Source of the DNA: Candidatus Campbellbacteria bacterium
Lineage (GTDB): Bacteria; Patescibacteriota; Minisyncoccia; Phycocordibacterales; GCA-2747955
Length of the DNA stretch: 64,000 bases
Assembly (NCBI GenBank): GCA_002747955.1
Contig: PDQZ01000009.1
Location: 949 to 64,948 of the forward strand
Direction of reading: 5' to 3'
Shown here: positions 378 to 50,453 of the stretch, piece after piece
Layout of the letters: every line of letters begins with the position of its first letter
How positions within the stretch are numbered: the first letter of the stretch is position 1
The notes under the pieces: model-generated
The model's input: only the letters and a program-made list of their open reading frames with translations
Told to the model about the DNA's origin: nothing
Databases searched by the model: none
Position numbers and translations under genes: made by a program

Positions 378-914
378 ATGAGCAGATTAGGAAAAAAAGC
401 AATTGAAGTTCCAGAAAAAACAGAAGTAAACATTGAAGGAACAACAGTTACAGTTAAAGGACCTTTAGGAGAACTTACAAAAACTTTTAAAGACGTTGTA
501 ACTATTAAAAAAACAGATGAAGGAATTGATGTAAAACCAAAAGATGAAAAATCAATTTTTTCAAAAGCAATGTGGGGAACAGTTTCTTCACACATTAGAA
601 ACATGATTTCAGGTGTTAACCAGAAATTCAAAAAAGATTTAATCATCGAAGGTGTGGGATATAGAGCCGAAGTGAAAGGAAAAAATCTTGTTTTGAAAGT
701 TGGACTTTCACACGATGTTGAACTTGATATTCCAGAAGAACTTGATGTTGAGGTAAACAAAGACACAATCACAATACAAGGAATTGACAAAGAAAAAGTT
801 GGACTTTTTGCATCAAAAACAAGACTTGTTAAAAAACCTGAACCTTACAAAGGAAAAGGAATTAGATATTCTGATGAAGTTGTAAGAAGAAAGGAAGGAA
901 AGAAAACTGTATAA
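378..914 (+). CDS. rplF: 50S ribosomal protein L6
   Basis: MSRLGKKAIEVP..TVTVKGPLGEL.. typical L6 N-terminus; start chosen at ATG 378 inside the longer listed ORF. Confidence 0.9.
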   Translation: MSRLGKKAIEVPEKTEVNIEGTTVTVKGPLGELTKTFKDVVTIKKTDEGIDVKPKDEKSIFSKAMWGTVSSHIRNMISGVNQKFKKDLIIEGVGYRAEVKGKNLVLKVGLSHDVELDIPEELDVEVNKDTITIQGIDKEKVGLFASKTRLVKKPEPYKGKGIRYSDEVVRRKEGKKTV

Positions 915-926
915 TAAAAGAAAAAT

Positions 927-1271
927 ATGACTAATATAAAAGTAGAAAAAAAACAAAGAAGACACAAAAAAATTAGATCAAAAATTTCTGGAACAGAACA
1001 AAAACCAAGAGTTTCTGTTTGTAAATCAAATACAGGAATCTTTGTCCAATTTGTAGATGACAAATCTGCAAAAACTCTTCTTTCAGGATCAACAAAAAAA
1101 GTTGACGGAAAAACAAAAACAGAAAAATCAAAAAATCTAGGGCTTGCTTTAGGAAAAGAAGCAATGGATAAAAAAATCACAGAAGTAGTTTTTGACCGAG
1201 GTGGAAACCTTTACACAGGTAGAGTTCAAGCTATTGCAGATGGTTTAAGAGAAGCAGGACTTAAATTTTAA
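927..1271 (+). CDS. rplR: 50S ribosomal protein L18
   Basis: L18 signature ..FDRGGNLYTGRVQAIADGLREAGLKF; spc operon position. Confidence 0.9.
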   Translation: MTNIKVEKKQRRHKKIRSKISGTEQKPRVSVCKSNTGIFVQFVDDKSAKTLLSGSTKKVDGKTKTEKSKNLGLALGKEAMDKKITEVVFDRGGNLYTGRVQAIADGLREAGLKF

Positions 1272-1291
1272 TTACAAATATCATTTAAATT

Positions 1292-2212
1292 ATGACAGAA
1301 GATAAAAATAAAAATGAAAATCTAGAAAATCAAAATCTAGATCAAAAAACAGAACAGAACGATACTCCAAAAGAAAGCAAGGAGGAAAAAGTTGTTGAAA
1401 ACAAAGAAGAAGTAAAAACAACATCAGAAAACGAAAATAAAGAAGAAAAAACAAAAAGTTCTGATAAAAAAGATTTTAAAGGAAGAAAACCTTTTGATAA
1501 AAACAGAAGATTTAATAACAAAAGAGGTGGAAAATTCAGAAGACCATTTAGAAGAGAAAAACCAGAATTTGAACAAAAAATTCTTTCTCTAAGAAGAGTT
1601 ACTCGTGTTATGGCAGGAGGTAGAAGATTTTCTTTCTCAGTTGCAGTTGTTGTTGGAGATAAAAAAGGAAGAGTGGGAATTGGTTTAGGAAAATCAAACG
1701 ACACAACAATGGCTATTGATAAAGCTGTTAGAAATGCAAAGAAAAATATGGTTAGAATCAAACTTAACAAAGACGGTTCTATCCCATACGATGTTTCTGC
1801 AAAATACAAAGCCTCAGAAGTAAACATCAGACCTGTTAAAGGTAAAGGACTTGCTGCTGGTGGTGCTGTGCGTACTGTTTTGGAATACGCAGGTGTTAAA
1901 GAAGCAGGGGCAAAACTTTTGACAAGATCAAAAAATCATATTAACAACGCTTGGGCAACAATTATCGCTTTGGAACCATTTTCAGAAAAAGTTGAAGTAA
2001 GTTTGCAAAAAGAAGATAGAAGAAATCCAAGAGGAAGAAAAGGTGGAAGATTTAACAAAAAAGGAGGATTTAATAAAGGTGGTTTCAACAAAGGAAGAAA
2101 ACCTTTTGTTAAAAGAGAGGATAAACCTCAAGGTTCAGAAGCAAAACCTGAAACAACAGAAGTGAAAGAAAAAACTGAAGCTGAAACTGTTGAAAATAAT
2201 TCTAATAAATAA
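1292..2212 (+). CDS. rpsE: 30S ribosomal protein S5 with long low-complexity N- and C-terminal extensions
   Basis: Core RVTRVMAGGRRFSFSVAVVVGDKKGRVGIGLGKSND.. S5 domain; K/E-rich N-tail and RG/K-rich C-tail. Confidence 0.9.
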   Translation: MTEDKNKNENLENQNLDQKTEQNDTPKESKEEKVVENKEEVKTTSENENKEEKTKSSDKKDFKGRKPFDKNRRFNNKRGGKFRRPFRREKPEFEQKILSLRRVTRVMAGGRRFSFSVAVVVGDKKGRVGIGLGKSNDTTMAIDKAVRNAKKNMVRIKLNKDGSIPYDVSAKYKASEVNIRPVKGKGLAAGGAVRTVLEYAGVKEAGAKLLTRSKNHINNAWATIIALEPFSEKVEVSLQKEDRRNPRGRKGGRFNKKGGFNKGGFNKGRKPFVKREDKPQGSEAKPETTEVKEKTEAETVENNSNK

Positions 2213-2217
2213 GAACT

Positions 2218-2664
2218 ATGCAAATTAACGAATTGAAAAAAAATAGCCCAAACAAAAGCGCAAAAAGAGTTGGGCGAGGTGGTAAAAGAGGAAAAACTTC
2301 TGGAAAAGGTCACAAAGGACAAAAAGCAAGAACAGGAAACTCAACAAGACCACAAATGAGGGACATTATTAAAAAATTCCCTAAGTTAAGAGGGCAAGGA
2401 GTTCACGGAAATAAAAACCGAGAAATTCTTAACAAATATTTTGCAATCAACCTTTCTGAAATCGAAAAAGTTTTTGAAAATGGTGATGTTGTAAATCCAG
2501 AAACACTTAACCAAAAAGGACTTTTACCAAAACAAAAAGGAAAAATTGTAAGAGGGAAAATTTTAGGGAATGGAGAACTAACAAAGAAACTTACAATTGA
2601 AAATCTTTTAATATCTAAAACTGCACAAAAAAAAGTTGAAGATAATAAGGGAGAAGTAAAATAA
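2218..2664 (+). CDS. rplO: 50S ribosomal protein L15
   Basis: ..KRVGRGGKRGKTSGKGHKGQKAR.. L15 motif; follows S5 directly (no L30 gene between). Confidence 0.9.
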   Translation: MQINELKKNSPNKSAKRVGRGGKRGKTSGKGHKGQKARTGNSTRPQMRDIIKKFPKLRGQGVHGNKNREILNKYFAINLSEIEKVFENGDVVNPETLNQKGLLPKQKGKIVRGKILGNGELTKKLTIENLLISKTAQKKVEDNKGEVK

Positions 2665-2668
2665 AATT

Positions 2669-3952
2669 ATGAAAACACTTTTAAACAAAATAATATTTAT
2701 CTTTAAAGATCAAGTTTTGGCAAAAAGAGTTTTGTTCATATTCTTTATCTTTTTGATTTACAGAATGTTGGCAGCAATTCCAATTTCTGTTATCGACGGA
2801 AGTGCTTTAAAACAATTTTTTGAAACCAACCAATTTTTTGGTTTCGTAAACTTGTTTTCAGGAGGTGGACTGTCTTCACTTTCAATTGTGATGTTGGGTG
2901 TAATGCCTTATATTACAGCATCAATTATTATGCAAGTTATGACACTTGTTGTGCCAAAACTTAAAGAGATGCAACAAGAAGGGGGAGATGCAGGGCGAAA
3001 AAAGATCGCAAATATTTCAAGATATTTATCTTTACCAATTGCTGCTGTTCAATCTATTGGGTTTTTAGCACTTTTGCAACAAGGGGGAGCCTTGGGCCAT
3101 ATTACAACAGCTGACAAAGCATTTGCGCTTTTAATTGCAGTTGCAGGAACAGTTTTGTTAATGTGGCTTGGAGAACTTATCACAGAGTTTGGAATCGGAA
3201 ACGGACTTTCACTTATTATTTTTGCAGGTATTGTAGTTTCACTTCCTGGAACTGTAACACAGATTTATCAAACATTTGATATGTCAAACCTTGCAATGTA
3301 TATTGGAGTATTTGTGATTTTTGTTTTGATGGTTTATTCTATTGTTTATGTAACAGAAGCTGAACGACCAGTTGTGGTGCATCACGCAAAAGCATCAAGA
3401 GCAGGGCAAAAAGCACAAAAAATTGCATCAACAATTCCGATTAAACTTAATCAAGCAGGAGTTATTCCGATTATTTTTGCAGTTTCTCTGATTACTTTTC
3501 CATCAATGATCTTTTCATTTTTGCAAACAGTGTCAGGAGCAGCTGCGGGAGGTTGGCTTGAAAAAGCAGCTAACTTTTCACAAGATCCTTGGGCTTATGG
3601 AATAGTTTATTTCTTTTTAGTATTTTTCTTTACATACTTTTACACAGCTGTTACATTTGATCCTAAAAGAATGGCAGAAAACTTGGCAAAATCAGGAACT
3701 TACGTTCCAGGTGTAAGACCAGGAGAGGATACAGAAAAATACTTGGGGGATATTACAACCAGAGTTACATTTTTCGGAGGATTATTCTTAGCTGTGATTG
3801 CAATTTTGCCGATTGTAATTGCACAAATTACAGGAAATCAGTCACTTTCTGTTGGTGGAACATCAATTTTGATTGTTGTATCAGTAGCAATTGACTTGAT
3901 CAGAAAAATCAACGCTCAAATTTCTGTGAGAGAATATGTTCATTCTGTTTAA
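2669..3952 (+). CDS. secY: preprotein translocase SecY
   Basis: 10-TM protein, conserved SecY segments (..LGVMPYITASIIMQ.., ..GNGLSLIIFAGIV..); follows rplO. Confidence 0.9.
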   Translation: MKTLLNKIIFIFKDQVLAKRVLFIFFIFLIYRMLAAIPISVIDGSALKQFFETNQFFGFVNLFSGGGLSSLSIVMLGVMPYITASIIMQVMTLVVPKLKEMQQEGGDAGRKKIANISRYLSLPIAAVQSIGFLALLQQGGALGHITTADKAFALLIAVAGTVLLMWLGELITEFGIGNGLSLIIFAGIVVSLPGTVTQIYQTFDMSNLAMYIGVFVIFVLMVYSIVYVTEAERPVVVHHAKASRAGQKAQKIASTIPIKLNQAGVIPIIFAVSLITFPSMIFSFLQTVSGAAAGGWLEKAANFSQDPWAYGIVYFFLVFFFTYFYTAVTFDPKRMAENLAKSGTYVPGVRPGEDTEKYLGDITTRVTFFGGLFLAVIAILPIVIAQITGNQSLSVGGTSILIVVSVAIDLIRKINAQISVREYVHSV

Positions 3953-3998
3953 ACATAAAGAATGTAAAACAAAAATCAGAAAAAATAGAAGAAAAAAC

Positions 3999-4022
3999 AA
4001 AAAAGCCTTCGGCTTTTTTGTT
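3999..4022. terminator. rho-independent terminator hairpin after secY
   Basis: aaaaagccttcggcttttttg : GC stem, UUCG loop, T-run. Confidence 0.7.
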
Positions 4023-4450
4023 TTTTTTAAGTATTTAATGGTCCCCGAAAATTGCTTCGCAATTTTCGGGGAATTTTTAAAGAAAAGACCTGTTTAACCT
4101 TACTTTTTCCACATAGTTTTTTAAATTTTTTTGACAAAAAGAATAAAAACTGCTATTTTTAATATATGAGTAATTTAAAAACAAAACAAAATATTCTCTT
4201 TGTATTTGGGCACTGGTTTAAAAACTGGGGGAGTTTTGTTTTTAAAAAAAATCTATTTATGCAAAAAGTTTAAAGTCTAAAATAAAAAACTAAAAATAAA
4301 TAAATTTTGAAATTTAATAAAACAAAACTTCCCTGCGGGAAGTTTTGTTTTATTTAAATAGTATTTTGCTTTAAGATAAAATATATTTTTGTTTTAAAGG
4401 AAAATATTATTATTTTCCAAGTCGTTCTTTAAAAATTAAAAGGTGAAAAA

Positions 4451-4633
4451 ATGAAAGACCAAAAAGACCCAGAGATGGGAACAAAAGATGGGATTGTTCT
4501 TGAGGAAACACAAACTTTAAGAACAAGTGTTGAAACAGATACATCGGAAAATCAAAGTGAAGGAAATTTTGGGATAAGTTGTTCTGAACCCACCCCTTGT
4601 TTTGGAGCAGATGATTACGAAGGGCTTTTTTAA
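4451..4633 (+). CDS. small acidic hypothetical peptide (60 aa) with Cys-containing C-terminus
   Basis: RBS aaaggtgaaaaaATG; co-directional and 15 bp upstream of next gene; no recognisable domain. Confidence 0.4.
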   Translation: MKDQKDPEMGTKDGIVLEETQTLRTSVETDTSENQSEGNFGISCSEPTPCFGADDYEGLF

Positions 4634-4648
4634 GTCAAGGAGTTTAAA

Positions 4649-5401
4649 ATGGATATGAAAAAGTTTTACGTTAAGAAATCTTCCTGCCCACAAGAGCAAC
4701 TGTTTTGGAACAGAGAAAATGGACTTCATCTGGAAGTGGAAGAATATTTTCACAAAAAAGGGTACTTTATTCCAAGCTTTCTAAAAACAGAAAATCCAAA
4801 TGGAAGACTAAATGCTTTTTCTGTCAGGCATATTGCAACTTACAGAAACGAAGACAAAGCATTTTTAAATCTTGCAACTACAATGTTTGGTTTAAATCCA
4901 ATTTGGCTTGAGTATCAACAAGATAAATACACTCAGCATTCAAAGCCAAAAACTTCAAATTTGATTTTGAATACTGGCGGAGAAAGAAAGTTGAAAATTG
5001 CTTGCCCTGCAAAAAATGATGGAAAAAAGTTAAATCAAATCCAAACTAATTTTGGAAAAAGTTTAGTTGATTTCCATCACACTTTGTGGAGTTCTTTACC
5101 ACATTCTGGTATTCGCAAGAAATTTGATTTTTCAGATTTTTTAAAGCAGTTTGGAAGTGCTGAAGATTATTATTTTTATGATTTAGCGCTTTCTGTGGCT
5201 CATGGAGTTTTGTTCAAAGATTTTCACGGAGAGCACAAGCTTTCTTCAAAAGGTTCAAAAGAATTTACCAGAAAAATTGTTGAACCTGCTTTTGAAAAAG
5301 TTGTTAAAACTTTTGGAGTTTCTCCTGTTGTAGTACAGTTTTCATACCATCAAGGTTATGAAATTTATCCAAATTTGAAAATCCCAAAGTGTTTGCAATG
5401 A
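4649..5401 (+). CDS. hypothetical protein (250 aa)
   Basis: RBS aaggagtttaaaATG; long ORF with typical codon usage; no recognisable motif; terminator hairpin gtgcaaactcgtttgagtttgcac follows. Confidence 0.6.
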   Translation: MDMKKFYVKKSSCPQEQLFWNRENGLHLEVEEYFHKKGYFIPSFLKTENPNGRLNAFSVRHIATYRNEDKAFLNLATTMFGLNPIWLEYQQDKYTQHSKPKTSNLILNTGGERKLKIACPAKNDGKKLNQIQTNFGKSLVDFHHTLWSSLPHSGIRKKFDFSDFLKQFGSAEDYYFYDLALSVAHGVLFKDFHGEHKLSSKGSKEFTRKIVEPAFEKVVKTFGVSPVVVQFSYHQGYEIYPNLKIPKCLQ

Positions 5402-5512
5402 TTTTTTCACTTGTGCAAACTCGTTTGAGTTTGCACCTTTTTAAAGCAATAAAGTGTAAGTATTTTATTGTTTTTAGAGGTAAAATAAGTTACAATCAAT
5501 TAAATAAAAAAT

Positions 5513-6898
5513 ATGAAATTAAAATACAACAAAGAAAATCAAAAAGGTTTCAGAATGATAAATTTTTATCAAAAAGAAAATCAAAAAAAAGAAGATACGA
5601 AGAATGAGAAATTTTTAAACTTTAAAACAGAAAAGATTGAAAGCATAAGTGATCTAGTGCTTTCTGTAAGAGGCGCTGTTTTAAGAGCCAAAAGTCACAA
5701 ACAAGAAAAAATTTCTTTTAATTATTCACAAATTCAAAATTTTGAAATTAAAAATGTTTCAGAAAGTTTAAAGGCAAAACTTTTTGCTGAAAATATTTTA
5801 CTTTCTTGGTATAAATTTGATAAATACAAAACCAAAAAAGAAAATAGTTTAAAAGAAGTTTTAGTTTTTGGAGATTTTTTGAAAACAGAAAAAGAAGGTT
5901 TTAAAAAAGGACAGAAAACAGCCGAAGCTGTGAATTTTGCTCGAGATTTAGCAAATACTCCAGCAAATGATATGACGCCTGATGTTTTTGTTTCCGAAGT
6001 AAAAAAAGAATTTAAAGGAAACAAAAAAGTAAAAGTTAAAGTTTTAAACCAGTCAGATATTTTAAAAAAGAAAATGGGTCTTTTAGATGCAGTTTCAAAG
6101 GGAAGTCTAAACAAACCAAAACTTTTAGTTTTAGAATATTTTAATGCTAAAAATAAAAAAGAAAAACCAACAGTTTTAGTGGGAAAAGGAGTTTGTTATG
6201 ATACAGGCGGACTTTCTTTAAAACCCACAGACGGAATGGTTAATATGTCAAAAGATATGACAGGGGCAAGTGTTGTAGTTTCTGTTTTGAAAAATTTAAT
6301 TTCTTTAAATTTAAACAAAAATATTGTGGTTGTAACGCCACTTGTTGAAAATTCTGTTTCTGGAAATTCTTATAGACCAGGTGATATTTTAAAATCAATG
6401 TCTGGAATTACGGTTGAAGTTTTAAACACAGATGCTGAAGGTCGGTTGATTTTAGCTGACGCGATTACTTATGCTAAAAAGTATAAACCAAAAATGTTGC
6501 TTGATGTTGCCACTTTAACAGGAGCAGCCTTGATGGCAGTTGGGGAAAATGCAACAGTTTTTATTACTCAAAATGATGAACTTGAAAATACTTTAAGAGA
6601 GATTGGGCAGGAAACTTTCAACAGAGTTTGGAGACTTCCAAGTTGGGCAGTTTATGAAAAAAAGTTAAAAAGCAATTATGCAGATATTGTAAATACTGCT
6701 ACAACAAAATGGGGTGGAACAATTACAGCGGGAATGTTTTTGTATCAGTTTGTGAAAGATTATAAAAAAGATGAGCCAAAGTGGGTCCACTTTGACATGG
6801 CTCCAAGAATGGAAAGTGTTCCAGAAGATAGTTTAGAAAAAGGTTCAACTGGGGAGCCCGTGAGTTTGATTGTTGAATTTTTAAAGAAAAATGTTTAA
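5513..6898 (+). CDS. pepA: leucyl aminopeptidase, M17 family
   Basis: NTDAEGRLILADAITYA M17 active-site signature; ..VGKGVCYDTGG.. motif. Confidence 0.9.
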   Translation: MKLKYNKENQKGFRMINFYQKENQKKEDTKNEKFLNFKTEKIESISDLVLSVRGAVLRAKSHKQEKISFNYSQIQNFEIKNVSESLKAKLFAENILLSWYKFDKYKTKKENSLKEVLVFGDFLKTEKEGFKKGQKTAEAVNFARDLANTPANDMTPDVFVSEVKKEFKGNKKVKVKVLNQSDILKKKMGLLDAVSKGSLNKPKLLVLEYFNAKNKKEKPTVLVGKGVCYDTGGLSLKPTDGMVNMSKDMTGASVVVSVLKNLISLNLNKNIVVVTPLVENSVSGNSYRPGDILKSMSGITVEVLNTDAEGRLILADAITYAKKYKPKMLLDVATLTGAALMAVGENATVFITQNDELENTLREIGQETFNRVWRLPSWAVYEKKLKSNYADIVNTATTKWGGTITAGMFLYQFVKDYKKDEPKWVHFDMAPRMESVPEDSLEKGSTGEPVSLIVEFLKKNV

Positions 6899-6963
6899 GG
6901 GTTTTAAACTTTGAAAAACCTGAAAAAAGCTTCGCTTTTTTCAGGTTTTTGTTTTTTTTGGAA

Positions 6964-6992
6964 TTGACAAAATATGTAAAAAGATTTATAAT
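6964..6992 (+). promoter_or_regulatory. sigma70-like promoter (TTGACA-17bp-TATAAT) upstream of P-loop kinase gene
   Basis: ttgaca at 6964-6969, 17-bp spacer, tataat at 6987-6992; follows terminator 6905-6945. Confidence 0.5.
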
Positions 6993-7024
6993 AATGCAGG
7001 ATTATTTTATTAACTTAAATAAAA

Positions 7025-7450
7025 ATGGAGAAAAAAATGTATCCAAACAAAACGGTTTACATAATGCGTGGAGTGAGTGGGTCTGGAAAATCTCATGAAG
7101 CAAAAATGATGGCATTTACTTACAATGGTGTTGTTCATTCAACCGATGATTTTTTTGTTAAAAATGGAAAATATCAATTTGATAAAGAAAAATTAAAAGA
7201 AAATCATAAAAAGAACCAAAAGGCTTTTTTAAAAAGTCTTAAAATGGGTATCAGAGTGGTTATTTGCGATAACACAAACATTAAGCTTGACCATATGAAG
7301 CCATATGAAAAAATGGCTTTGACGCATGGTTATGACCTGGTGTATGTCACAATGCCACATCCAGACCCTGCTGTTGCTGCAAAAAATAACATACACAACG
7401 TTCCAGAATTTGTTATAAGAAAACAGATTGAGCAGTGGGAAAAAATGTAA
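7025..7450 (+). CDS. P-loop NTPase / putative polynucleotide-kinase-like kinase (AAA_33-like)
   Basis: Walker A GVSGSGKS near N-terminus, ..VVICDNTN.. Walker-B-like; alternative start ATG 7037 has GGAG 8 nt upstream. Confidence 0.6.
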   Translation: MEKKMYPNKTVYIMRGVSGSGKSHEAKMMAFTYNGVVHSTDDFFVKNGKYQFDKEKLKENHKKNQKAFLKSLKMGIRVVICDNTNIKLDHMKPYEKMALTHGYDLVYVTMPHPDPAVAAKNNIHNVPEFVIRKQIEQWEKM

Positions 7451-7630
7451 ATGAAAACAAAACGGGAACATGGAAGTTCTCGTTTTTTAAATTTTAAATT
7501 AAATTAAAATTGACATTATTTTTTAAAATGTTAAAATAATTTTAGGTTTTTATATATAAAAACAGCAGTTTTTTCCGAAAGGAAAAAACTGCTTATATAT
7601 AATTTTTCTTTAATCTAACAGGAGAAAGAG

Positions 7631-8224
7631 ATGGAAGGAATAGTTGATGTTATGAAAGTGATTGATCCAGTACAGAGATTGTACATCACAGGAACGGTAA
7701 CACAGGAGGTTACAGAAGCTTTTTTAGACACAATAAATAAAATGGAGGCAGATTATGGTAGCCCTGATTTAATTTTAGAGATTGATTCGATGGGTGGTAA
7801 TTGGGAAGATTGTAAGTCTATTTGTTGTACTATTGAAAAGTACAAGGGAAGAATTTTTGGTTTAGGAACTCTGAATTGCTCTTCTGCTGCTTTTTTTATT
7901 TTACAAAAATGTTTTTATAGGTCAGCTTATGAAAATTCAAAAATAGTTGTTCATGAAATTGCACTTTCAGGTATTCCAGAAAATAGGCTGACTGCAAGTG
8001 TTTTACAGAATCTTTCTTCTGGGAAAAGAAATGGATTGCATAAGAAGGTTGACGAAATTATTGCTTCACTTCAAAAAGATAATAAAAGAATTGCAAAATT
8101 TCTTTCTGAAAGAAGTGGGCTTTCAACCCAAGCAGTTCGGAATATGATGAGGTCCGAGCATTCTGTAGATCCGAAAAACCTTTTAGAAAAAGGGTTTTTG
8201 GATGAAATTGTTTATGCTTTTTAA
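7631..8224 (+). CDS. ClpP-family (S14) serine protease-like protein, divergent
   Basis: Collinear with ClpP: IDSMGG (cf INSPGG), NCSSAAFFIL (cf GQAASMGAFLL), VVHEIALSG (cf MIHQPLGG), C-terminal GFLDEIV. Confidence 0.5.
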   Translation: MEGIVDVMKVIDPVQRLYITGTVTQEVTEAFLDTINKMEADYGSPDLILEIDSMGGNWEDCKSICCTIEKYKGRIFGLGTLNCSSAAFFILQKCFYRSAYENSKIVVHEIALSGIPENRLTASVLQNLSSGKRNGLHKKVDEIIASLQKDNKRIAKFLSERSGLSTQAVRNMMRSEHSVDPKNLLEKGFLDEIVYAF

Positions 8225-8267
8225 AGCAGTGCCGCGCAAACGAAGTTTGCGCGGCTATATTTTAATC

Positions 8268-9023
8268 TTACTTTTTTATTTCTACAAATCTATATTTATC
8301 AAACTGGTCTTTTAAAAATTTAAATTCAGAATAATTTTTATTTTCCTGTAACATTTTTTGAATATCATCTTTTTGCTGTTGATCAAATTCAATATACATT
8401 TTTCCGTTTTCTTTTAAATATTTAAAACCTTGGTCAATTAGTTTTTCTATAAAATAGAGACCTTTATTTTTTGCAAAAAGAGCATTTGGATCTTCAAAAT
8501 TTAAAACCGATTTTTGAACTTTTTCTTTTTGATTTTGTGGAATATAAGGTGGGTTTGCAATAATTAAATTATATTTTTTATTTATATTTTCAAAAATATC
8601 AGAGCAAATGACTTCTGATTTGTTTTCAAAATCTTTGATATTTTCTTTTAAATTAATCTGAATTTGTTTTAAGTAGTTTTGATTGATTTCTGAAAAATGA
8701 ACTTTTGTTTTTGGACAATTTTTTAAAATAGAAACTCCAATACAACCAGAACCTGAAAAAATATCTAAAACATCAAGCTTTTCATTTTCTTTTTGATTTA
8801 TATTTTTAATAATTTCAGAAACTAGAAACTCAGTTTCGTCTCGGGGAATTAAAGGTTTGTAAGACAAATCAATTTTGCAGTTTAAAAATGGACGGTTTCC
8901 GATTAAAAAATCAAGAGGATAACCTTTTTTGAGTTTTTCTAAATCGGCCGAAAATGCTTCGCATTTTCGGCTTTTGTATTTCTCATCCAAAAGCCATTTT
9001 TCTTGTCTTTTTTCTAAATTCAT
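8268..9023 (-). CDS. prmC: release-factor glutamine N5-methyltransferase PrmC/HemK family
   Basis: SAM motif ..DIFSGSGCIGVSI.. and NPPY motif (IIANPPYI). Confidence 0.75.
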   Translation of the reverse strand: MNLEKRQEKWLLDEKYKSRKCEAFSADLEKLKKGYPLDFLIGNRPFLNCKIDLSYKPLIPRDETEFLVSEIIKNINQKENEKLDVLDIFSGSGCIGVSILKNCPKTKVHFSEINQNYLKQIQINLKENIKDFENKSEVICSDIFENINKKYNLIIANPPYIPQNQKEKVQKSVLNFEDPNALFAKNKGLYFIEKLIDQGFKYLKENGKMYIEFDQQQKDDIQKMLQENKNYSEFKFLKDQFDKYRFVEIKK

Positions 9024-9081
9024 TTTTATATTATATCAGAAAAAAAACTCCTTGCATTTTATATTATGCAAGGAAATTTAG

Positions 9082-9405
9082 TTAAACTTTTTCAGGAATC
9101 TCTTTTAATGTCTTGGACATTAACCAAGACATAACGGCCATCTTCTCTTCAGAGCTTAAGGTGCGAGTTTCATGCACCTTTTTAATAAAGCGAATTTGCC
9201 TTTTTTTTCTGAAAAAGTTTTTTTCTATAAAAAGGTCTCCCTTTATAACATTTTTGTTTTTTATAAGTTTTTTTACAAAAACAACCCAGGGGTTATTTAT
9301 GTAAAAAAACTCCTTAGGTACTTTATTTTTTAAACTGTGGATTGGAACAAAACCAAAGTTTATTTCAGTGCCCTCAAATAAAGGTTTGTTTTTTCTTTTC
9401 AACAT
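9082..9405 (-). CDS. hypothetical protein (108 aa)
   Basis: ORF with GGAGG RBS 5 nt upstream of ATG at 9405 (minus strand); basic protein, no known motif. Confidence 0.5.
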   Translation of the reverse strand: MLKRKNKPLFEGTEINFGFVPIHSLKNKVPKEFFYINNPWVVFVKKLIKNKNVIKGDLFIEKNFFRKKRQIRFIKKVHETRTLSSEEKMAVMSWLMSKTLKEIPEKV

Positions 9406-9542
9406 TTTTGCCTCCAATATCAAGATAAGTTCTTATTTCATTATATAATTTTTAAAATATAAGTCAATAATTTTCTTTACTTTTTGTTAAAAAAGGGTAT
9501 AATACTGCATAGTTTTTTAATTCACTAACATAGGAGAAAAAA

Positions 9543-10064
9543 ATGTTATTAACAAATTTTGAGATGGTAGATGGAGGGCTTTTAGACGAAAACATTCGTG
9601 AGAATGTTTTTGTTGATAAAAGTTACTCTATTTTTAGAGTAAACCTAAGCTCATCTTTTTTCTCAAACAGAAAATATGAAGCTTATGGTGACTGGAATTT
9701 TTGGTTGCAAAAAGACAGACTTGCACCAAATGGGGTTATGTGTAAACTTGGCTCTGGAGAAATTGAATTTTTTCAAGATGTTAACACCTACCATAATAAT
9801 TTGATTTACAGAGTCAAAGCAAAAAGATTTGGAAAAATAACGCAAAACAATAAATTTTCTCAAGTTAAATATCAAATGCAACTTGGAGAATATATTTATT
9901 TTTTCATTGTCTTTTCTCTGCCCGAATACATAAATTTTGATATTTATGATAAAAAGGGTAAAGTAATTGATTTTGTATGTCAAAAATACCAAAAACCACT
10001 AAGGCGTAAAACAAGTCTTGTGACTGAAAAAATATTTAGACACAGAACAAAACCTGCTTTTTAA
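9543..10064 (+). CDS. hypothetical protein, paralog A of a tandem pair
   Basis: Shares MLLTNF.., YGDW(N/D)FW, GSGEIEFF, VKYQ.QLGEY.YFFIVFSL with the ORF at 10267; RBS aggagaaaaaaATG. Confidence 0.7.
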   Translation: MLLTNFEMVDGGLLDENIRENVFVDKSYSIFRVNLSSSFFSNRKYEAYGDWNFWLQKDRLAPNGVMCKLGSGEIEFFQDVNTYHNNLIYRVKAKRFGKITQNNKFSQVKYQMQLGEYIYFFIVFSLPEYINFDIYDKKGKVIDFVCQKYQKPLRRKTSLVTEKIFRHRTKPAF

Positions 10065-10174
10065 AAGCAGGTTTTTTTAAAAGTATAAACACACACTAGT
10101 TCTTGGTTGGTTGTCTTTACTTCAAGTTTTTCTTTTGAAGCCTCGGGGCTATAAAAAAAATTTCTAAAATTCAT
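10061..10174 (-). pseudogene. duplicated promoter + 5' fragment of rsmE (first ~18 codons conserved), remnant 37-codon ORF
   Basis: About 76 bp at 10121-10196 nearly identical (few mismatches) to 50353-50428, which is the rsmE 5'UTR plus N-terminus; encodes MNFRNFFYSPEASKEKLE then diverges. Confidence 0.6.
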
Positions 10175-10266
10175 AAATACATTTTAGCATAAAACAAACA
10201 AATTTTCTTTACTTTTTTTCTAAAAACTATTAAATTTATGTTAAATTATTTCCAGGGGAGGAAAAA

Positions 10267-10740
10267 ATGTTATTAACAAATTTCAAAATTAAAAACGGTG
10301 GGTACTTACAAGGTAAATCAAGAGAGTATGTATATGTTGATGAAAAATACGCTCTTTTTAAGGTGGATCCACACGACCCTTCTCTTCACAAAGAAAAATA
10401 TGCTGCTTACGGAGATTGGGATTTCTGGGAGCATAGTGGCGGTATAATCACAAATGGGGTTATGCACAAAATTGGCTCTGGAGAAATTGAATTTTTTCCA
10501 GATACTAATTGTTATCATAATATTTTGATTTATAGAATCAAGGAAGAGGATTTCGGAAAAATAGTGGAAAATAATAAATATTCTCGAGTTAAATATCAAG
10601 TTCAACTTGGGGAGTATGTTTATTTTTTCATTGTCTTTTCTTTGTCTGACCATATAGATTTCTGTATTTATGATGAAAAGGGTAAGTTGGTTGATGCATT
10701 ATCTAAGAGATATAAAAAGCCACAAAAACGTAAAATTTAA
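10267..10740 (+). CDS. hypothetical protein, paralog B of a tandem pair
   Basis: Roughly half of residues identical to 9543..10064 with the same N-terminus and motifs; RBS gggaggaaaaaATG. Confidence 0.7.
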   Translation: MLLTNFKIKNGGYLQGKSREYVYVDEKYALFKVDPHDPSLHKEKYAAYGDWDFWEHSGGIITNGVMHKIGSGEIEFFPDTNCYHNILIYRIKEEDFGKIVENNKYSRVKYQVQLGEYVYFFIVFSLSDHIDFCIYDEKGKLVDALSKRYKKPQKRKI

Positions 10741-10812
10741 AAACAAACCAAAACCTGCTTGCAAGCAGGTTTTCTTTATTGGACCTTTAAAATATGGTAT
10801 AATACTTACATT

Positions 10813-13323
10813 ATGTTAAATTATATTAGAAATTTATTTGATGAAAATAAATCAATTTTGAAAAAAACTTATCCTATTGTAAAAAAGATAAATTCTTATG
10901 CAGATGAAATGAAAAATTTGTCTGATCAAGAACTTGAACAAAAAACTCAAGAATTCAAAAAAGCTTTAAAAGATGGTAAAACTTTGGACGACATTTTACC
11001 TGAAGCTTTTGCTGTGGTAAAAGAAGTTTCAACAAGAGCAACTGGACTTACTCCATACGACGTGCAGTTGATTGGTGGTATTTTGTTACATCAAGGAAGA
11101 ATTGCTGAGATGAAAACAGGTGAAGGTAAAACTTTGGTTGCTACACTTCCTACTTATTTAAACGCTTTGGAGGAAAAAGGAGCTCACATTGTAACTGTAA
11201 ACGACTATCTTTCAAGAAGAGATGCGGTTTGGGTAGGACAAATTTTTGCAAAACTTGGGCTTTCTGTCGGGGTGATAAACTCAGACAACCAATCTTATTT
11301 ATACGACCCAACTTACAGGGAACAGTTTGACGAAGCTCGTGATGAACTTGGATCTTTCAAAGTGGTTTATGAATTTCTAAAACCTTGTGATAGGAAAGAG
11401 GCTTACAAAGCAGACATTACTTACGGAACAAACTCAGAGTTTGGTTTTGACTATTTGAGAGACAACATCACAGCAGACAAAGAAGATTTAAGGCAAAGAG
11501 ATTTAAACTTTGCAATTGTCGATGAGATTGACTCAATTTTAATCGATGAAGCTCGTGTGCCGTTGATTATTTCAGCCGGAGCAAGTGAAAACCGACAAAT
11601 TTATATTACTTTTGCTGAAATTGCAAAACAGTTAAATGAAGGGGAAGATTTTGAAAAAGACGAAAAAACAAAATCAATTATTATTAAAGACAGCGGAATT
11701 GATAAAGCTGAAAAAGCACTTGGAATTGACAACTTGTATTCTGAAAAAGCAATGGTTTTGGTTGATCACTTAGAAACTGCTTTGAAAGCTAAAGCTTTGT
11801 ATAAAAAAGAAAAAGAATATGTTATCAAAAACGGTGAAGCGGTTATCGTTGATGAATTTACAGGAAGAATGCAAGACGGAAGACGATGGTCAGATGGTTT
11901 GCATCAAGCTATTGAAGCTAAAGAAGGGCTTGAGATTAAAGAAGAATCAAGAACTTTTGCATCTGTAACATACCAGAACTTCTTTAAGATGTATAAAAAA
12001 CTTTCAGGAATGACCGGAACTGCTGAAACATCAAAAGAAGAGTTTTTCAAAGTGTATCATTTAGATGTTGTGGTTGTGCCAACAAACAAACCTGTAACCC
12101 GAGTTGATAAAAAAGATTTGATTTTTGCAACCGAAAATGGAAAGTTTGAAGCTATTGCAAACAAAATTCAAGAGCTTTATGAAAAAGGGCAACCTGTTTT
12201 GGTCGGAACGGCTTCTGTTGAAAAATCAGAACTTCTTTCAGAATTTTTGGTTAAAAAAGGAATCAAACACACTATTTTGAATGCTAAAAACCACGAAAGT
12301 GAAGGAGAAATTATTGCAAACGCAGGTAAAAAATCAGCCGTAACGATTGCTACAAATATGGCAGGGCGTGGGGTTGATATTAAGCTTGGTGGAGCTCTTG
12401 CGTCTGAAGAGGAAAAGCAAGAAGTTCTGAAAAATGGAGGACTTTATATTTTAGGTACAGAAAGACACGAATCAAGAAGAATTGACAACCAGCTTCGAGG
12501 ACGTTCTGGACGTCAAGGGGATGTGGGAGAAACTCAATTTTATATTTCACTTGATGACCACTTAATGCGAGTTTTTGGAAATCAAGAATTTATGAAAAAA
12601 ATTCTTCTGAAAAAAGTTGAACTTGAAGGTGGGGAAGACAAACCGATTGAGTCAAAAATCATGTCTTCAAATGTTGAAAAAGCTCAGGAGAAAATTGAAG
12701 GATTTCATTTTGACGCCCGAAAACATGTTTTGGAATACGACGATGTTTTGGATGTTCAAAGAAAAGCTATTTACAAAAAAAGACGAGATATTTTACTTGC
12801 TGAAAACGAAGATATTTTTGAATTTTTTAAAAGTGAATTTAAAGATAACCAAGAATTTTTGGATCAAACAAATCAGAAAATTGAAAAATTGAATCGAGAT
12901 GACTTTTTGAACTTTATTAAAAAAGTTTATTTAACTTCAATTGATACAATTTGGGTGGAGCACTTAAACGTGATGGAACATTTAAAGTCAGCTGTTTCTT
13001 TGCAATCTTACGGGCAAAAAGATCCGGTAGTGGAATATAAAAAAGAAGCTAAAAAATATTTTGAAAATATTTTTGAAGATATTAAAGGAAATGTTTTGAA
13101 AAATATAAACGCTGTAGACCCAGATCAGATTTTGGCAAATTTGGAAAGACAAACAGAGATTGAAAGAAAAGCCAAAGAAGCAGTTAAAAATTCAGAAAGG
13201 GCAGAAGAAGGAAATAAAAAGAAAAAACCAATTGTAAAAAAGAATGAGGAGAAAATTGGGAGAAATGATAAGTGTCCATGCGGAAGTGGAAAGAAGTATA
13301 AGAACTGCTGTATGAAACACTAA
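10813..13323 (+). CDS. secA: preprotein translocase ATPase SecA
   Basis: DEAD-like motor motifs (..MKTGEGKTLVATLP.., ..DEIDSILIDEARVPLIIS..), C-terminal zinc finger CPCGSGKKYKNCC; start at ATG 10813 just after a tataat (tatggtataat). Confidence 0.9.
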   Translation: MLNYIRNLFDENKSILKKTYPIVKKINSYADEMKNLSDQELEQKTQEFKKALKDGKTLDDILPEAFAVVKEVSTRATGLTPYDVQLIGGILLHQGRIAEMKTGEGKTLVATLPTYLNALEEKGAHIVTVNDYLSRRDAVWVGQIFAKLGLSVGVINSDNQSYLYDPTYREQFDEARDELGSFKVVYEFLKPCDRKEAYKADITYGTNSEFGFDYLRDNITADKEDLRQRDLNFAIVDEIDSILIDEARVPLIISAGASENRQIYITFAEIAKQLNEGEDFEKDEKTKSIIIKDSGIDKAEKALGIDNLYSEKAMVLVDHLETALKAKALYKKEKEYVIKNGEAVIVDEFTGRMQDGRRWSDGLHQAIEAKEGLEIKEESRTFASVTYQNFFKMYKKLSGMTGTAETSKEEFFKVYHLDVVVVPTNKPVTRVDKKDLIFATENGKFEAIANKIQELYEKGQPVLVGTASVEKSELLSEFLVKKGIKHTILNAKNHESEGEIIANAGKKSAVTIATNMAGRGVDIKLGGALASEEEKQEVLKNGGLYILGTERHESRRIDNQLRGRSGRQGDVGETQFYISLDDHLMRVFGNQEFMKKILLKKVELEGGEDKPIESKIMSSNVEKAQEKIEGFHFDARKHVLEYDDVLDVQRKAIYKKRRDILLAENEDIFEFFKSEFKDNQEFLDQTNQKIEKLNRDDFLNFIKKVYLTSIDTIWVEHLNVMEHLKSAVSLQSYGQKDPVVEYKKEAKKYFENIFEDIKGNVLKNINAVDPDQILANLERQTEIERKAKEAVKNSERAEEGNKKKKPIVKKNEEKIGRNDKCPCGSGKKYKNCCMKH

Positions 13324-13760
13324 AAAACTTTAAAAACCAGCGGCTAACTTTGTCAGCTTCGCAAAAAAAATCCCTCACCGTACTGTTCGTACGGCTCGGG
13401 TTTTTTTTGTTCGCTTCCGCGTTATCCATCTGGTTTTTAAAGTTTTTACAAAATTTTAAAAATGAGCGACTAACTTCGTTGGCTTCATAAAATTATTTCT
13501 CAACGTACTTCAAGTACGTCTCAATAATTTTATTCGTCGCCTCGTTATTCATCTGGTTTTTAAAGTTTTTACAAAACTTGAAAAATTGGCAGATTGCTTT
13601 GTTGTCTTCATAAAAAAATTTCTCAACGTAATAACACATACGTATCCAAATTTTTTTACTCGACGCCTCGCACTCTACTCAATTTTTAAAGTTTTTACAA
13701 AACTTGAGAAATTGGTGAACCTCATCTAATTTTTAGCGCTTCATTGTGAAAGTAGAAAAT
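13324..13760. repeat. tandem array of a modular ~115-125 bp intergenic repeat (3 full units + partial 4th); each unit has a cgta..tacg hairpin followed by a T-run
   Basis: Units share the aaagtttttacaaaacttgaaaaat(t)g junction, agc..ctaactttgttggcttc, (c/t)tca(a/c)cgta-N5-9-tacg hairpin, tttttt, cg.cgcctcg; homologous arrays at 54738 and 58366. Confidence 0.8.
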
Positions 13761-14005: not shown

Positions 14006-14530
14006 ATGAATTTATTACACGACATACCTGCAGGAAGTGCAGATGAAATGAATGTTATTATTGAAATTCCTAAATTTTCAAAAAACAAATACGAGATTGA
14101 TAAAGAAACTGGGCTTATTGCTTTGGACAGGGTAATGCACACAGCTCAAGATTATCCATTTGACTATGGTTTTGTACCACAAACACTTTACGATGATGGA
14201 GATGCTCTTGATGTTGTGGTTTTAACAACACACGCACTTGCACCTGGGATTTTGGTAAGATGTCGTCCAGTGGCTGTAATGGAAATGGTTGACGATGGAG
14301 AAGCTGACGATAAAGTTATTGCAGTTCCAGTTGATGACCCTCGTTTTGACGAAGTTCAAGATTTAGGAGATTTAAATACACACTTTTTAAAAGAAATGAA
14401 ACACTTTTTTGGAACTTACAAGAAAATCCAAAACAAAGAAGTTTCAGTGGGAGATTTCAAGAATGCACAAGAGGCAAAAGATGCATTTGAGAAGTCAGTT
14501 GCTATGTACAAAGAAGACAAAGAAAAATAA
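14006..14530 (+). CDS. ppa: inorganic pyrophosphatase
   Basis: ..DYPFDYGFVPQTLYDDGDALDVVVL.. family I PPase signature; ATG 14006 lies 9 bp after a tataat (possibly leaderless); the listed ORF used an upstream TTG. Confidence 0.9.
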   Translation: MNLLHDIPAGSADEMNVIIEIPKFSKNKYEIDKETGLIALDRVMHTAQDYPFDYGFVPQTLYDDGDALDVVVLTTHALAPGILVRCRPVAVMEMVDDGEADDKVIAVPVDDPRFDEVQDLGDLNTHFLKEMKHFFGTYKKIQNKEVSVGDFKNAQEAKDAFEKSVAMYKEDKEK

Positions 14531-14560
14531 AAAACTTGAAAAATTGGTGACTTGATTTGT
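14531..14560. repeat. partial copy of the modular repeat junction motif (aaaacttgaaaaattggtga)
   Basis: Matches unit-start motif of the 13324 array (acaaaacttgagaaattggtgaacc). Confidence 0.5.
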
Positions 14561-14662
14561 TAGTTTAATTTAGAAATGTTTTGTTTGTAAAAAAGATGCA
14601 AATTTGACTTCGTCAAATTTGCATCTTTTTGTTTTTTGTTTTCAAAATGTTAAAATGTCTTT

Positions 14663-16639: not shown

Positions 16640-16651
16640 TTATATAAAACA

Positions 16652-16708
16652 AAAAAGCCCATTTTCGCTCAATGTTTAATTTAAAAAAGGGCGAAAATGG
16701 GCTTTTTT
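16652..16708. repeat. 55-bp hairpin element (arms aaagcccattttcgc / gcgaaaatgggcttt), copy 1; bidirectional terminator-like
   Basis: Near-identical copies at 50454-50512 (opposite orientation) and 55047-55103. Confidence 0.75.
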
Positions 16709-16736
16709 GTTCTTAAATTTTTGTTATAATTTAAAT

Positions 16737-20537: not shown

Positions 20538-20629
20538 AAAAGCCCGAAATTTTTTGCCCTTGTTTTGCTTGTGACTTGTGACAGGCAAGGCCTGTCACAA
20601 GCAAAACAGGGGCAAAAAATTTCGGGCTT
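20538..20629. terminator. ~90-bp perfect-palindrome terminator after efp with gcccgaaatttttt arms and GGCAAGGCC core
   Basis: aagcccgaaattttttgccc..gtgacaggcaaggcctgtcac..gggcaaaaaatttcgggctt. Confidence 0.7.
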
Positions 20630-20656
20630 TTATTATCACTGTGCTATAATATAAAA

Positions 20657-21952: not shown

Positions 21953-23005
21953 ATGAATATGAAAAAAATTTTTAACTTTTTTAAAAAAAATTTTACAACG
22001 ATACTTTATATTTTAATTTTTTTAACTTTAATTTTTTTAATTTATAAAAACTTTACGAAAGTCAAGCAGTATCAAAAACTTGAAAAAATAAAAACAGATT
22101 ATCGGAATACTAAAAAACTTGAAAAAAAAGAAAGTGATGATACAGACAATGACGGGCTTTTGGATTGGCAAGAAATTATATATAAAACAGATATTGACAA
22201 CCCAGATTCTGATGGTGACGGTATAAATGATGGAGATGAAGTTAGGGATGGAACTAATCCCCTTTCTTTTAAAAATATAAAAAATGAAGAGATTGTGGTT
22301 GTTAAAGAAAGTGTTGAAAATATAGAAAAACAAATTGCAAAAAGAAGAAAAACTCAAAAGGAACAAGAAAATCAACAGTTTAAAATTAAAAAAATTAAAT
22401 TTAAATCAAATTTAACCCAAGAAGAAAAAGATCTTTTAGCAGGCTACGATCAAGAAAATATTTTAATTAAAAAAGACATGAATATTTTGGGAAAAGTTTT
22501 TTTAGAAAATACACATTCTGTAAATGCCACTGAAGAAAGTGAAAACATGTTTTTGTTGTTTAATAATTTACTTCCTTATTCTTATGAAAAATCACAAGAA
22601 ATTTTAAAAGAAAATAATAATTTAAAGTTCGCAGAACAATTACCGGCTTATAGGGAAGTTACCGAAAGTGAAATATCAAAAATGAAAGCAAAAGCTATGT
22701 ATTATAAAAAAATTTCTGAACTTTTAAAAGAAAAAGAAAGTCAGTTGGAGTCAAAATTTTTTAATCAATATTATTTAAGTTTTTACAATACTTATAAAAA
22801 TGTTTATGTTTATCAAAGCGAACTTTTGGATTTTTATAAAAATGGAGAGGGTGATTATGAAAAAATAATAGAAAAAATTAAAAAGTATACTCAAGCAGGG
22901 CTTGAAATGGCAGACACTTATGCTTCTGTTGATAGAATGATTGATACAAGAGAACTAAAAATCAGCCCAAATGAGCCAGCTTCTTATTTTGATTTGAAAG
23001 TGTAA
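21953..23005 (+). CDS. membrane-anchored protein with thrombospondin-type-3-like Ca-binding DxDxDG repeats (paralog 1)
   Basis: N-terminal TM; DTDNDGLLDWQEIIYKTDIDNPDSDGDGINDGDEVRDGTNP; paralogous to 23103..24056. Confidence 0.65.
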   Translation: MNMKKIFNFFKKNFTTILYILIFLTLIFLIYKNFTKVKQYQKLEKIKTDYRNTKKLEKKESDDTDNDGLLDWQEIIYKTDIDNPDSDGDGINDGDEVRDGTNPLSFKNIKNEEIVVVKESVENIEKQIAKRRKTQKEQENQQFKIKKIKFKSNLTQEEKDLLAGYDQENILIKKDMNILGKVFLENTHSVNATEESENMFLLFNNLLPYSYEKSQEILKENNNLKFAEQLPAYREVTESEISKMKAKAMYYKKISELLKEKESQLESKFFNQYYLSFYNTYKNVYVYQSELLDFYKNGEGDYEKIIEKIKKYTQAGLEMADTYASVDRMIDTRELKISPNEPASYFDLKV

Positions 23006-27935: not shown

Positions 27936-27997
27936 ACTTATCTTTATAGAAAATAAAAACACCCAAAAAATAAGCGGTGTTTTTTTGTTTTACCAAG

Positions 27998-28024
27998 TAT
28001 TAACAGGCAAGGCTTATTAACGCT
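27998..28024. repeat. GGCAAGGC-core palindromic element (degenerate copy)
   Basis: tattaacaggcaaggcttattaacgct, cf 59168-59196 agcgttaacaggcaaggcctgttaacgct. Confidence 0.55.
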
Positions 28025-28257
28025 TGATTTTTGTATGAAAATGGTATATAATTATGTGTGAAGTTTTTAACTTCATATTTTTTTCATGGGAGTCCTTGAC
28101 CCGAGCATGCGCTCGGGTCTTTTTTGTGTTTGCACTATTTTTTAAAAAAGTTATAATATTGTGGAGGTTCACGTAATCTCCTTTTAGTGGTTGATTCTTT
28201 GCCCGAGTATACGCTCGGGCTTTTTTTATTTTTAAAATTTTTGTTATAATATGTTAA

Positions 28258-30106: not shown

Positions 30107-30167
30107 TTTAGTTTAAAACACCATTTAACAAAGTTAAATGGTTTTTTTTTTAAATTCAAAAAATTTA

Positions 30168-30214
30168 AGGCAAGGCCTTGTTAAGGCAAGGTCTTAACAA
30201 GGCCTTGCCTTGAA
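30168..30214. repeat. nested palindrome built from caagg/ccttg units (GGCAAGGCC family)
   Basis: aaggcaaggccttgttaag-gcaaggt-cttaacaaggccttgcctt (19-bp arms). Confidence 0.7.
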
Positions 30215-32302: not shown

Positions 32303-32326
32303 GAAAACGAAAACCAAGCCCGAAAT

Positions 32327-49722: not shown

Positions 49723-50406
49723 TTACAATAAAATTTTTGAACATAAGCACAAAGCTGCATTTTCAGCTTTTAAAACATTGGATGTTTTAAAAGATAAAAT
49801 CTTTTCTTTTTCAAAAAGTTTCATTTCTCTTTCAGACAAACCACCTTCAGGCCCTATAACACAAGCTTTGATATTCTTTATATCAATTTCATTTATATTT
49901 TGACCACCAAAATTTAAAACAAAAGAGTTTGGATTTTCTTTTAAAAAATCATCTAAACTGTTTTTAAAATCAAGTTTCATTAAACTTCCTCTGCCACATT
50001 GCTCACAAGAGTTGATTAAAATTTTTTGAAGTTTTTCTTTTTTTAGCTTAAAACTTTTTTGACTCAAATCAGAATATATAAAGGTGATTTTTTCAACTCC
50101 TGTTTGGTTTAAGTATGGCAAAACTTCTTTGATGCTTTTCGGATCAATGATACAAAAACCTAAATGAAAATTATTTTGATTTTCATTTTTAACTTCTTCT
50201 CTGCTTTCCAAAACTAAAAAAGCTTTTTTGTTTTGAACACTTTGGATTTTGTAAGAATAATCAAAGTCATCTTTCAGATTTTTTAAAATCACAATATCAT
50301 TCTCTTTTTGCCTTCTTGATTTTACTAAGTGATTAAAAAGGTCATTTTTAATTTCAAGTTTTTCTTTTGAAGCGTCGGGACTGTAAAAAAAATTTCTAAA
50401 ATTCAT
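49723..50406 (-). CDS. rsmE: 16S rRNA (uracil1498-N3)-methyltransferase RsmE
   Basis: C-terminal SPOUT motif VIGPEGGLSEREM (cf IGPEGGF.E.E). Confidence 0.7.
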   Translation of the reverse strand: MNFRNFFYSPDASKEKLEIKNDLFNHLVKSRRQKENDIVILKNLKDDFDYSYKIQSVQNKKAFLVLESREEVKNENQNNFHLGFCIIDPKSIKEVLPYLNQTGVEKITFIYSDLSQKSFKLKKEKLQKILINSCEQCGRGSLMKLDFKNSLDDFLKENPNSFVLNFGGQNINEIDIKNIKACVIGPEGGLSEREMKLFEKEKILSFKTSNVLKAENAALCLCSKILL

Positions 50407-50453
50407 AAATATATTTTAACATAAAATCATTAAAATTTTAGCATATGAAAAAT

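Follow-up and report, generated by a model that had tools for sequence, protein, structure and literature searches.

A stray copy of the rsmE gene start between two tandem orphan paralogs in a small Patescibacteria genome, probably a relic of partial duplication

Gene remnants—pseudogene fragments left by partial duplication—are the closest described counterpart of the element considered here, a stray copy of the start of rsmE in a 64,000-nucleotide stretch of a Candidatus Campbellbacteria genome (hereafter the window). As in such remnants, the piece is a short, truncated 5' copy of a functional gene of the same genome, is devoid of the catalytic domain, exists in two copies only, and shows no mobile-element features. 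It differs from them in keeping a promoter, a start codon, an open frame, and a terminator, which amount to a formally complete transcription unit, and in residing in a very small, streamlined genome of the Patescibacteria (CPR). Non-functional DNA is expected to be scarce in streamlined CPR genomes. We consider the piece best filed as a gene remnant of partial duplication, unusual in retaining a complete minimal expression unit.

Two further phenomena invite comparison. Putative mobile promoters, in the definition given by Matus-Garcia, Nijveen and van Passel (2012; PMC3575422), are stretches of at least 50 nt and at least 80% identity lying within -150 to -50 upstream of two non-homologous genes. 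Like the elements described there, the piece is a promoter-bearing stretch present at two unrelated places in one genome without a known mobile element, but it spans about -32 to +60, running into coding sequence, and drives only its own truncated frame. It was not classed as a putative mobile promoter under the definition in that source (PMC3575422), as identity is 30% above -32 and the second copy precedes nothing but its own frame. Short-patch double illegitimate recombination, known from experiments with Acinetobacter baylyi, inserts ectopic genomic DNA at microhomologies (bioRxiv 10.1101/2023.11.22.568220). The piece resembles the templated microindels of that account in having a donor elsewhere in the genome and short A/T-rich matches at both junctions, and differs in that the target 8-mer is duplicated rather than replaced, the left microhomology covers 5 of 8 bases, and the mechanism is read back from the junctions.

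Compared with RsmE itself, the 16S rRNA (uracil1498-N3)-methyltransferase (PF04452, TIGR00046), the 20 residues encoded at the start of the piece have 90% identity to those of the RsmE of this genome, whereas the PUA-like (PF20260) and SPOUT methyltransferase (PF04452) domains are both missing from the piece, which therefore cannot be RsmE. A MITE, REP, or IS-derived element was also considered and rejected: the 64 kb contain just two copies, the public collections searched yielded none, TTTACTTCAAG and CAAACAAATTTT at the ends do not form inverted repeats, and, although an 8-bp flanking repeat is present, one copy is a true part of a gene, unlike in such elements.

The homology between the spacer piece and the rsmE start is real and sharply bounded (Table 1). 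The initial annotation had noted by eye a similarity with few mismatches between 10121-10196 and 50353-50428, placed in the spacer between the tandem paralogs, and pairwise alignment confirmed both the similarity and its location: 69 of 76 positions are identical in this core, the ungapped match extends to 79 of 91, and blastn of the spacer against the window returned it at E = 8.6e-26 (3.7e-25 at word size 11). Identity by segment places the core exactly there, with 51/54 in codons 1-18 (10121-10174) and 18/22 at positions -1 to -22 (10175-10196), falling to 3/6 in codons 19-20 and 20% deeper into the gene on one side, and to 7/10 at -23 to -32 and 30% farther upstream on the other. The match is neither much weaker than read by eye nor confined to A/T sequence, as it includes the G+C-containing part GAAGCCTCGGGGCTAT versus GAAGCGTCGGGACTGT and perfect runs of 28 and 21 nt, the former covering the start codon. 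Outside the paralog pair, the second-best match of the spacer in the window was plain A/T-rich (E ~2e-6); a match of 10153-10192 to 32930-32891 was set aside as low-complexity A/T. At the protein level, tblastn with RsmE recovered residues 1-20 at 10174-10115 (90% identity, E 1.6e-7) and nothing of the rest of the protein near 10.1 kb. What had been described as a truncated copy of the rsmE 5' end, with a promoter-like element and ATG, is thus borne out by the alignment and by the -10 module considered below.

Table 1. Coordinates of the rsmE-like piece, its source, and neighboring features in the window
Feature	Position	Strand	Basis or remark
Truncated copy of rsmE 5' end (~-32 to codon 20)	10116..10206	-	79/91 to 50348-50438; unambiguous core 10121-10196
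Extended -10 TGCTAAAAT	10181..10189	-	Window pattern scan; 6 nt upstream of ATG at 10174-10172
Open frame, 37 codons, MNFRNFFYSPEASKEKLEVKTTNQELVCVYTFKKTCF	10061..10174	-	ORF listing, codon table, tblastn with RsmE residues 1-20
Hairpin AAAACCTGCTT..AAGCAGGTTTT, paralog A terminator	10049..10075	.	Terminator scan and RNA fold of 10180-10030(-); terminator-like on - strand too
8-bp direct repeat CTTTACTT, left copy	10115..10122	+	Inner breakpoint of piece
8-bp direct repeat CTTTACTT, right copy	10207..10214	+	Inside paralog B upstream block 10201-10217
Full-length rsmE, 227 aa, source of copy	49723..50406	-	Pfam PF04452 and PF20260, NCBIfam NF008695, homologues
Source stretch, rsmE codons 1-20 and 32 nt upstream	50348..50438	-	Alignment; extended -10 TGTTAAAAT at 50421-50413
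Paralog A, orphan, 173 aa	9543..10064	+	ORF listing, homology searches
Paralog B, orphan, 157 aa	10267..10740	+	Own extended -10 at 10239, Shine-Dalgarno GGAGG

Whole-window self-comparison showed the piece, with two copies 40 kb apart within 64 kb, to be the sole dispersed repeat that includes coding DNA, the remaining repeats being intergenic hairpins or one of two tandem paralog pairs. The second such pair is seen at 22139-22260 versus 23283-23404 (72% identity over 122 nt), with gene starts near 21959 and 23103. Among the intergenic repeats, units of ~125 nt, all on the + strand (13321-13699; 14528-14657, partial; 54725-54985; 58368-58497), start at or near gene stop codons, three of them in tandem right after secA. 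RNAalifold of six copies gave one long hairpin of 48 pairs, 21 of which have compensatory changes on both sides, and the units matched neither an Rfam family nor a tRNA. Near-perfect intergenic palindromes of 80-125 nt with 84-100% complementarity (20538-20631, 32311-32410, 37491-37597, 40245-40369, 46083-46177), several with a common GCCCGAAATTTT core, are unusually dense for 64 kb of a small genome. Further intergenic palindromic motifs are built on GGCAAGGCC / AAGGCCTTGCC (for example, TTAACAGGCAAGGCCTGTTAAC) at 27981-28037, 59151-59207, 30161-30217, 36749-36796, and 54991-55025, and a relatively G+C-rich non-coding stretch at ~59290-59460 had no Rfam match at E <= 0.1.

The gene at 50.4 kb encodes a complete RsmE. 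Its product scores 91.5 bits to PF04452 (Methyltrans_RNA) and 30.4 bits to PF20260 (PUA_4), with the N-terminal PUA-like domain and the methyltransferase domain beginning at residues 19 and 75, and over its full length it reaches the curated thresholds of the family; NF008695 is the only NCBIfam equivalog passed (255.8 bits against a cut-off of 246), and TIGR00046 scores 135 bits. The N-terminus, FFYSPDASKEKLEIKNDLFNHL, aligns with FIYHKDAKVQSLEISGELYNYL of Campylobacterota RsmE, crossing codon 20. Because this alignment with foreign RsmE runs straight across the breakpoint, the native gene start is that at 50.4 kb, from which the 10.1 kb copy derives, and the direction of copying is from rsmE into the spacer. 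The nearest homologues of the protein are those of Campylobacterota (Malaciobacter, Sulfurovum; 41%–48% identity, E down to 1e-55), compared with only 28% identity to the RsmE of Zambryskibacteria (Patescibacteria), and the search for relatives in GTDB genomes returned just two distant loci (28%–29% identity). Judging from these similarities, rsmE may have been acquired horizontally by the present Patescibacteria lineage.

The region upstream of rsmE (50397-50445) contains a 22-nt tandem repeat that gives it two extended -10 elements at a distance of 22 nt, TGCTAAAAT at 50443 and TGTTAAAAT at 50421; the 10.1 kb copy has a single element, whose spelling is that of the distal one. A hairpin of ~66 nt (AAAAGCCCATTTTCGC, loop, GCGAAAATGGGCTTTT) occurs three times in the window (16647-16712, 50447-50512, 55042-55107), each time from a few to ~25 nt upstream of the extended -10 promoter of a + strand gene. 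The middle copy lies between the divergent starts of rsmE and cmk and, since no gene ends at that spot, is not simply a terminator there. From this hairpin setting, rsmE could itself have been inserted at 50.4 kb. An apparent resumption of the homology past the same hairpin amounted to a match of only ~6 nt and was dropped as over-fitting.

The copied start belongs to a promoter type that recurs across the window. A pattern scan of genes of at least 50 codons found an extended -10 element (TGnTAnAAT) followed by 6-7 nt and ATG at 19 genes, with a spacing of 6 nt in 14 and 7 nt in five (modules at, for example, 14648, 16722, 20642, 30261, 46578, 47380, and 50524). Given the usual distance from a -10 element to the transcription start, we infer that leaderless mRNAs are widespread. 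Other genes of the window, the two paralogs among them, have a classic GGAGG Shine-Dalgarno sequence instead. Native rsmE starts with TGTTAAAAT, 6 nt, and ATG, and the 10.1 kb copy has the same leaderless module (TGCTAAAAT, GTATTT, ATG), so its promoter looks intact by sequence. As the module is stereotyped, homology of the promoter part rests on its contiguity with the coding part, its own similarity being no better than the promoter consensus of the genome: the region upstream of the fragment agrees with that of rsmE at 18/22 and 25/32 positions, and the best values for unrelated leaderless promoters in the window are 17/22 and 22/32, whereas the coding part agrees with rsmE at 54/60 and with unrelated genes at 17-30/60. 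The initial annotation had taken the duplicated upstream part for a 5' UTR or promoter; a promoter-like element is indeed present, but an ATG 6 nt past the -10 implies a leaderless start and leaves no 5' UTR.

As had been described, the copy keeps its ATG and a frame open for 37 codons that ends in the terminator of paralog A, with the stop codon at 10063-10061 lying within the hairpin loop. Of these codons, 1-20 come from rsmE and 21-37 are read-on through unrelated sequence. Read on the minus strand, the hairpin has 12 pairs, four of them G-C, and a tail of just UUUUGUUCUGUG with the stem-closing U's counted; it lies ~100 nt downstream of the ATG of the copy and overlaps only the last codons of paralog A. 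The copy is probably transcribed on the minus strand, giving a short RNA of ~100-125 nt that would end at the putative bidirectional terminator of paralog A and from which a 37-residue peptide may be made. Of the suggestion that an active promoter fires antisense into paralog A, the apparently intact promoter stands, but its reach would be limited by this candidate terminator to the last codons of the gene.

The two genes flanking the piece (locus tags CSB11_01810 and CSB11_01815 in the record of this Candidatus Campbellbacteria bacterium metagenome-assembled genome) share 56% amino-acid and ~71% nucleotide identity, with a dN of 0.27-0.32 and a dS of 0.43-0.78, and the dN/dS of ~0.4-0.6 suggests that they are real coding genes. 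Homologues were found neither among 5.8 billion clustered proteins in a word-indexed search nor among 1.84 billion representatives in a full HMMER scan; being true orphans, the paralogs offer no relative for dating. Searches of PHROGs, PADLOC, and NCBIfam gave nothing beyond a weak AbiEi match, seen for paralog A only (E 3.7e-4, 18 bits) and regarded as noise, and the AlphaFold2 model of paralog B was poor (mean pLDDT 46), with a beta-rich C-terminal half. The pair is part of a homologue-less cluster between prmC and secA (9082-10740) that also includes a 107-aa minus-strand ORF. The two units have in common an upstream block, AATTTTCTTTACTTTTT, at 9469-9485 (A) and 10201-10217 (B), and a related terminator stem at 10049 and 10750, with the rsmE-like piece occupying the space from terminator A to the upstream block of paralog B.

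Searches of other genomes and metagenomes recovered neither the piece nor the paralogs. A degenerate pattern for MNFRNFFYSP[DE]A, the first 12 codons, matched nothing in the genome and metagenome contig collections, an outcome that also indicates that the source genome is absent from both. The closest SecA proteins (70%–74% identity) are those of Patescibacteria, and in three SecA neighborhoods (70%–73% identity) there was no synteny with this locus, the gene order being greA-secA twice and rhodanese-secA once. In the present DNA, S5 is followed directly by L15, without L30.

The borders of the piece bear on how it arrived. Besides the two copies of CTTTACTT that flank it, a third lies at 9475 in the corresponding block upstream of paralog A, and three of the six copies on the + strand of the window are at the paralog locus. 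An 8-mer repeated at such spacing near a given boundary occurs at 1.6%–3% of comparable places in the window; the flanking repeat is only modestly significant in a genome of 29% G+C. The right junction overlaps AAATTTT, present in both partner sequences, and the left junction is imperfect, with 5/8 bases shared between CTTTACTT and TTTAATTT and with CTTTACTT duplicated. Considered as a templated insertion, the donor is present at 50348-50438, and the junction matches have a P of about 0.02-0.03, weakly significant at this base composition. Taken together, the flanking repeat and junction matches look like the signature expected of insertion into an existing target at a microhomology.

The substitutions bear on its age. 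Over ~47 nonsynonymous sites, a neutral piece dating back to the paralog duplication would be expected to carry 9.5-17 differences, and at most two are seen (P <= 0.004). The piece is therefore either much younger than the pair, or constrained, or homogenised by gene conversion, and young age is the simpler reading. Five of the six differences in codons 1-20 fall at third positions (P ~0.06 by our estimate, if the fragment were neutral and only rsmE constrained), both amino-acid changes (D11E, I19V) are conservative, and the coding core differs at 3/54 positions compared with 7/32 upstream (Fisher P = 0.035). With three to six substitutions behind them, these patterns point weakly toward constraint on the copy.

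On the homology, boundaries, direction of copying, intact signals, and flanking repeat observed here, we consider it probable that the piece is a relic of partial within-genome duplication, inserted later at a microhomology and requiring no function. Some 84-91 bp of the rsmE start (~32 nt of promoter and codons 1-18/20) would have been copied out of the rsmE locus and placed in the short spacer that separates the paralog A terminator from the paralog B promoter block, most likely by illegitimate recombination or template switching at short A/T-rich microhomologies, and the insertion would postdate the duplication of the paralogs. Since the spacer without the piece measures only ~30 nt, a tolerated insertion had to land within it. 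The copy would merely happen to carry everything needed for a leaderless start—an extended -10, 6 nt, and ATG—and any short RNA or peptide made from it would need no function. Against a young neutral relic, it can be said that the intact ATG, frame, -10, and spacing, together with the third-position bias, fit constraint or gene conversion equally well.

The initial annotation had proposed that the duplication event may have created the paralog pair, and an origin of the piece as a by-product of that tandem duplication is the next reading in order, though an unlikely one. In one version, the ancestral paralog had rsmE as a divergent neighbor, duplication took in a unit reaching from rsmE codon 20 to beyond the terminator, and rsmE was afterwards relocated to 50.4 kb; in another, the duplication junction picked up the piece as filler DNA. 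The piece does lie exactly between 10080, where unit A ends with its terminator, and 10201, the first base that unit B clearly has in common with unit A, and the dS of its 20 codons, 0.59 from ~5 changes, is nominally within the range of the paralogs, but the shortfall of nonsynonymous differences relative to those expected of a neutral fragment of that age speaks against it. Both blastn and MAFFT extend the A/B alignment back to 9418/10150, into the rsmE-like part. A test for a decayed second copy of the piece upstream of paralog A gave P values from 0.016 to 0.26 under different scorings and null models, so the similarity is not robust, and comparison of the tail after terminator A with the secA promoter region that follows terminator B showed no significant similarity. 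At 50.4 kb, rsmE is in reverse orientation, with a convergent terminator on one side and, on the other, a unit of hairpin plus promoter that is otherwise found after + strand genes, an arrangement compatible with insertion of rsmE at that place. However, the version with an ancestral neighbor needs at least two further rearrangements, and in none of the three closest SecA relatives examined does rsmE lie near secA. The few nonsynonymous differences, the flanking repeat, and the extra rearrangements needed disfavor the proposal that this event made the pair.

Less probable again is that the piece is a functional mini-gene or regulatory RNA, a leaderless unit of promoter, ATG, 37 codons, and terminator under selection, whose product would be a micro-protein with the N-terminal 20 residues of RsmE or a short sense RNA. 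Its expression signals are all intact and match the genome consensus, with a terminator next to them; still, by our estimate, 17 further open codons would arise by chance about one time in four at the present base composition. The bias to third positions, the conservative nature of the amino-acid changes, and the better conservation of the core than of the flank, as well as the 28-nt perfect block over the start codon, would fit selection, but these statistics derive from only three to six substitutions, and comparison with homologues as outgroup places D11E on the fragment lineage. A 151-nt minus-strand RNA folds better than shuffled sequences (z = -4.1), though mostly through the terminator hairpin, and a small hairpin in the copy, AGCC-UCGG-GGCU, is absent from rsmE. 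The 37-residue product had no family match in PHROGs, PADLOC, or NCBIfam, and neither peptide nor RNA had a homologue in the genome and metagenome contigs. In Rfam 15, nothing in the spacer reached a gathering score, and nothing appeared at E <= 1 save sub-threshold matches driven by the terminator, the best being a PyrR binding site at 34.3 bits against the 54 needed, with the hairpin driving the score. In a + strand variant, transcripts reading through from paralog A would contain a 91-nt complement of the 5' end of the leaderless rsmE mRNA, its AUG included; the spacer has no stable fold on that strand (z = +0.5), and pattern and terminator scans found no + strand promoter between the strong terminator A and the piece.

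We think it more doubtful still that the piece is a young functional unit born from the gene fragment, with a peptide or short RNA already kept by selection. The most interesting variant of that reading is that the + strand complement, carried on paralog A read-through, may pair with the AUG region at the 5' end of rsmE mRNA, which, if true, would tie rsmE translation to expression of an orphan gene.

An assembly or binning artefact, in which a chimeric join put rsmE-like reads into the spacer, might be suspected of a metagenome-assembled genome from a single sequencing run, but is extremely improbable: an independent Logan assembly of SRR6011893 reproduces window positions 838-11130 base for base, giving agreement over 10.3 kb across the spacer, and has the rsmE locus on a separate contig, the copies differ at 12/91 positions and so are no collapsed or misjoined single repeat, and both flanks are halves of one diverged tandem pair.

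The stray rsmE start therefore looks like a real but ordinary gene-fragment relic, a scar of illegitimate recombination rather than a new system, and its present importance is small. It shows, cleanly and with clear boundaries, how a short gene fragment with its promoter can be copied to a second site in a very small genome of the Patescibacteria, and its junctions hint at insertion mediated by microhomology. In a genome dependent on leaderless transcripts, ~25 nt (an extended -10, 6 nt, and ATG) would be enough to make downstream DNA expressible and, as so little is needed, stray copies of gene starts would be ready-made seeds for small genes. Were this piece shown to be expressed as well as conserved, it would document the birth of a gene from a fragment.
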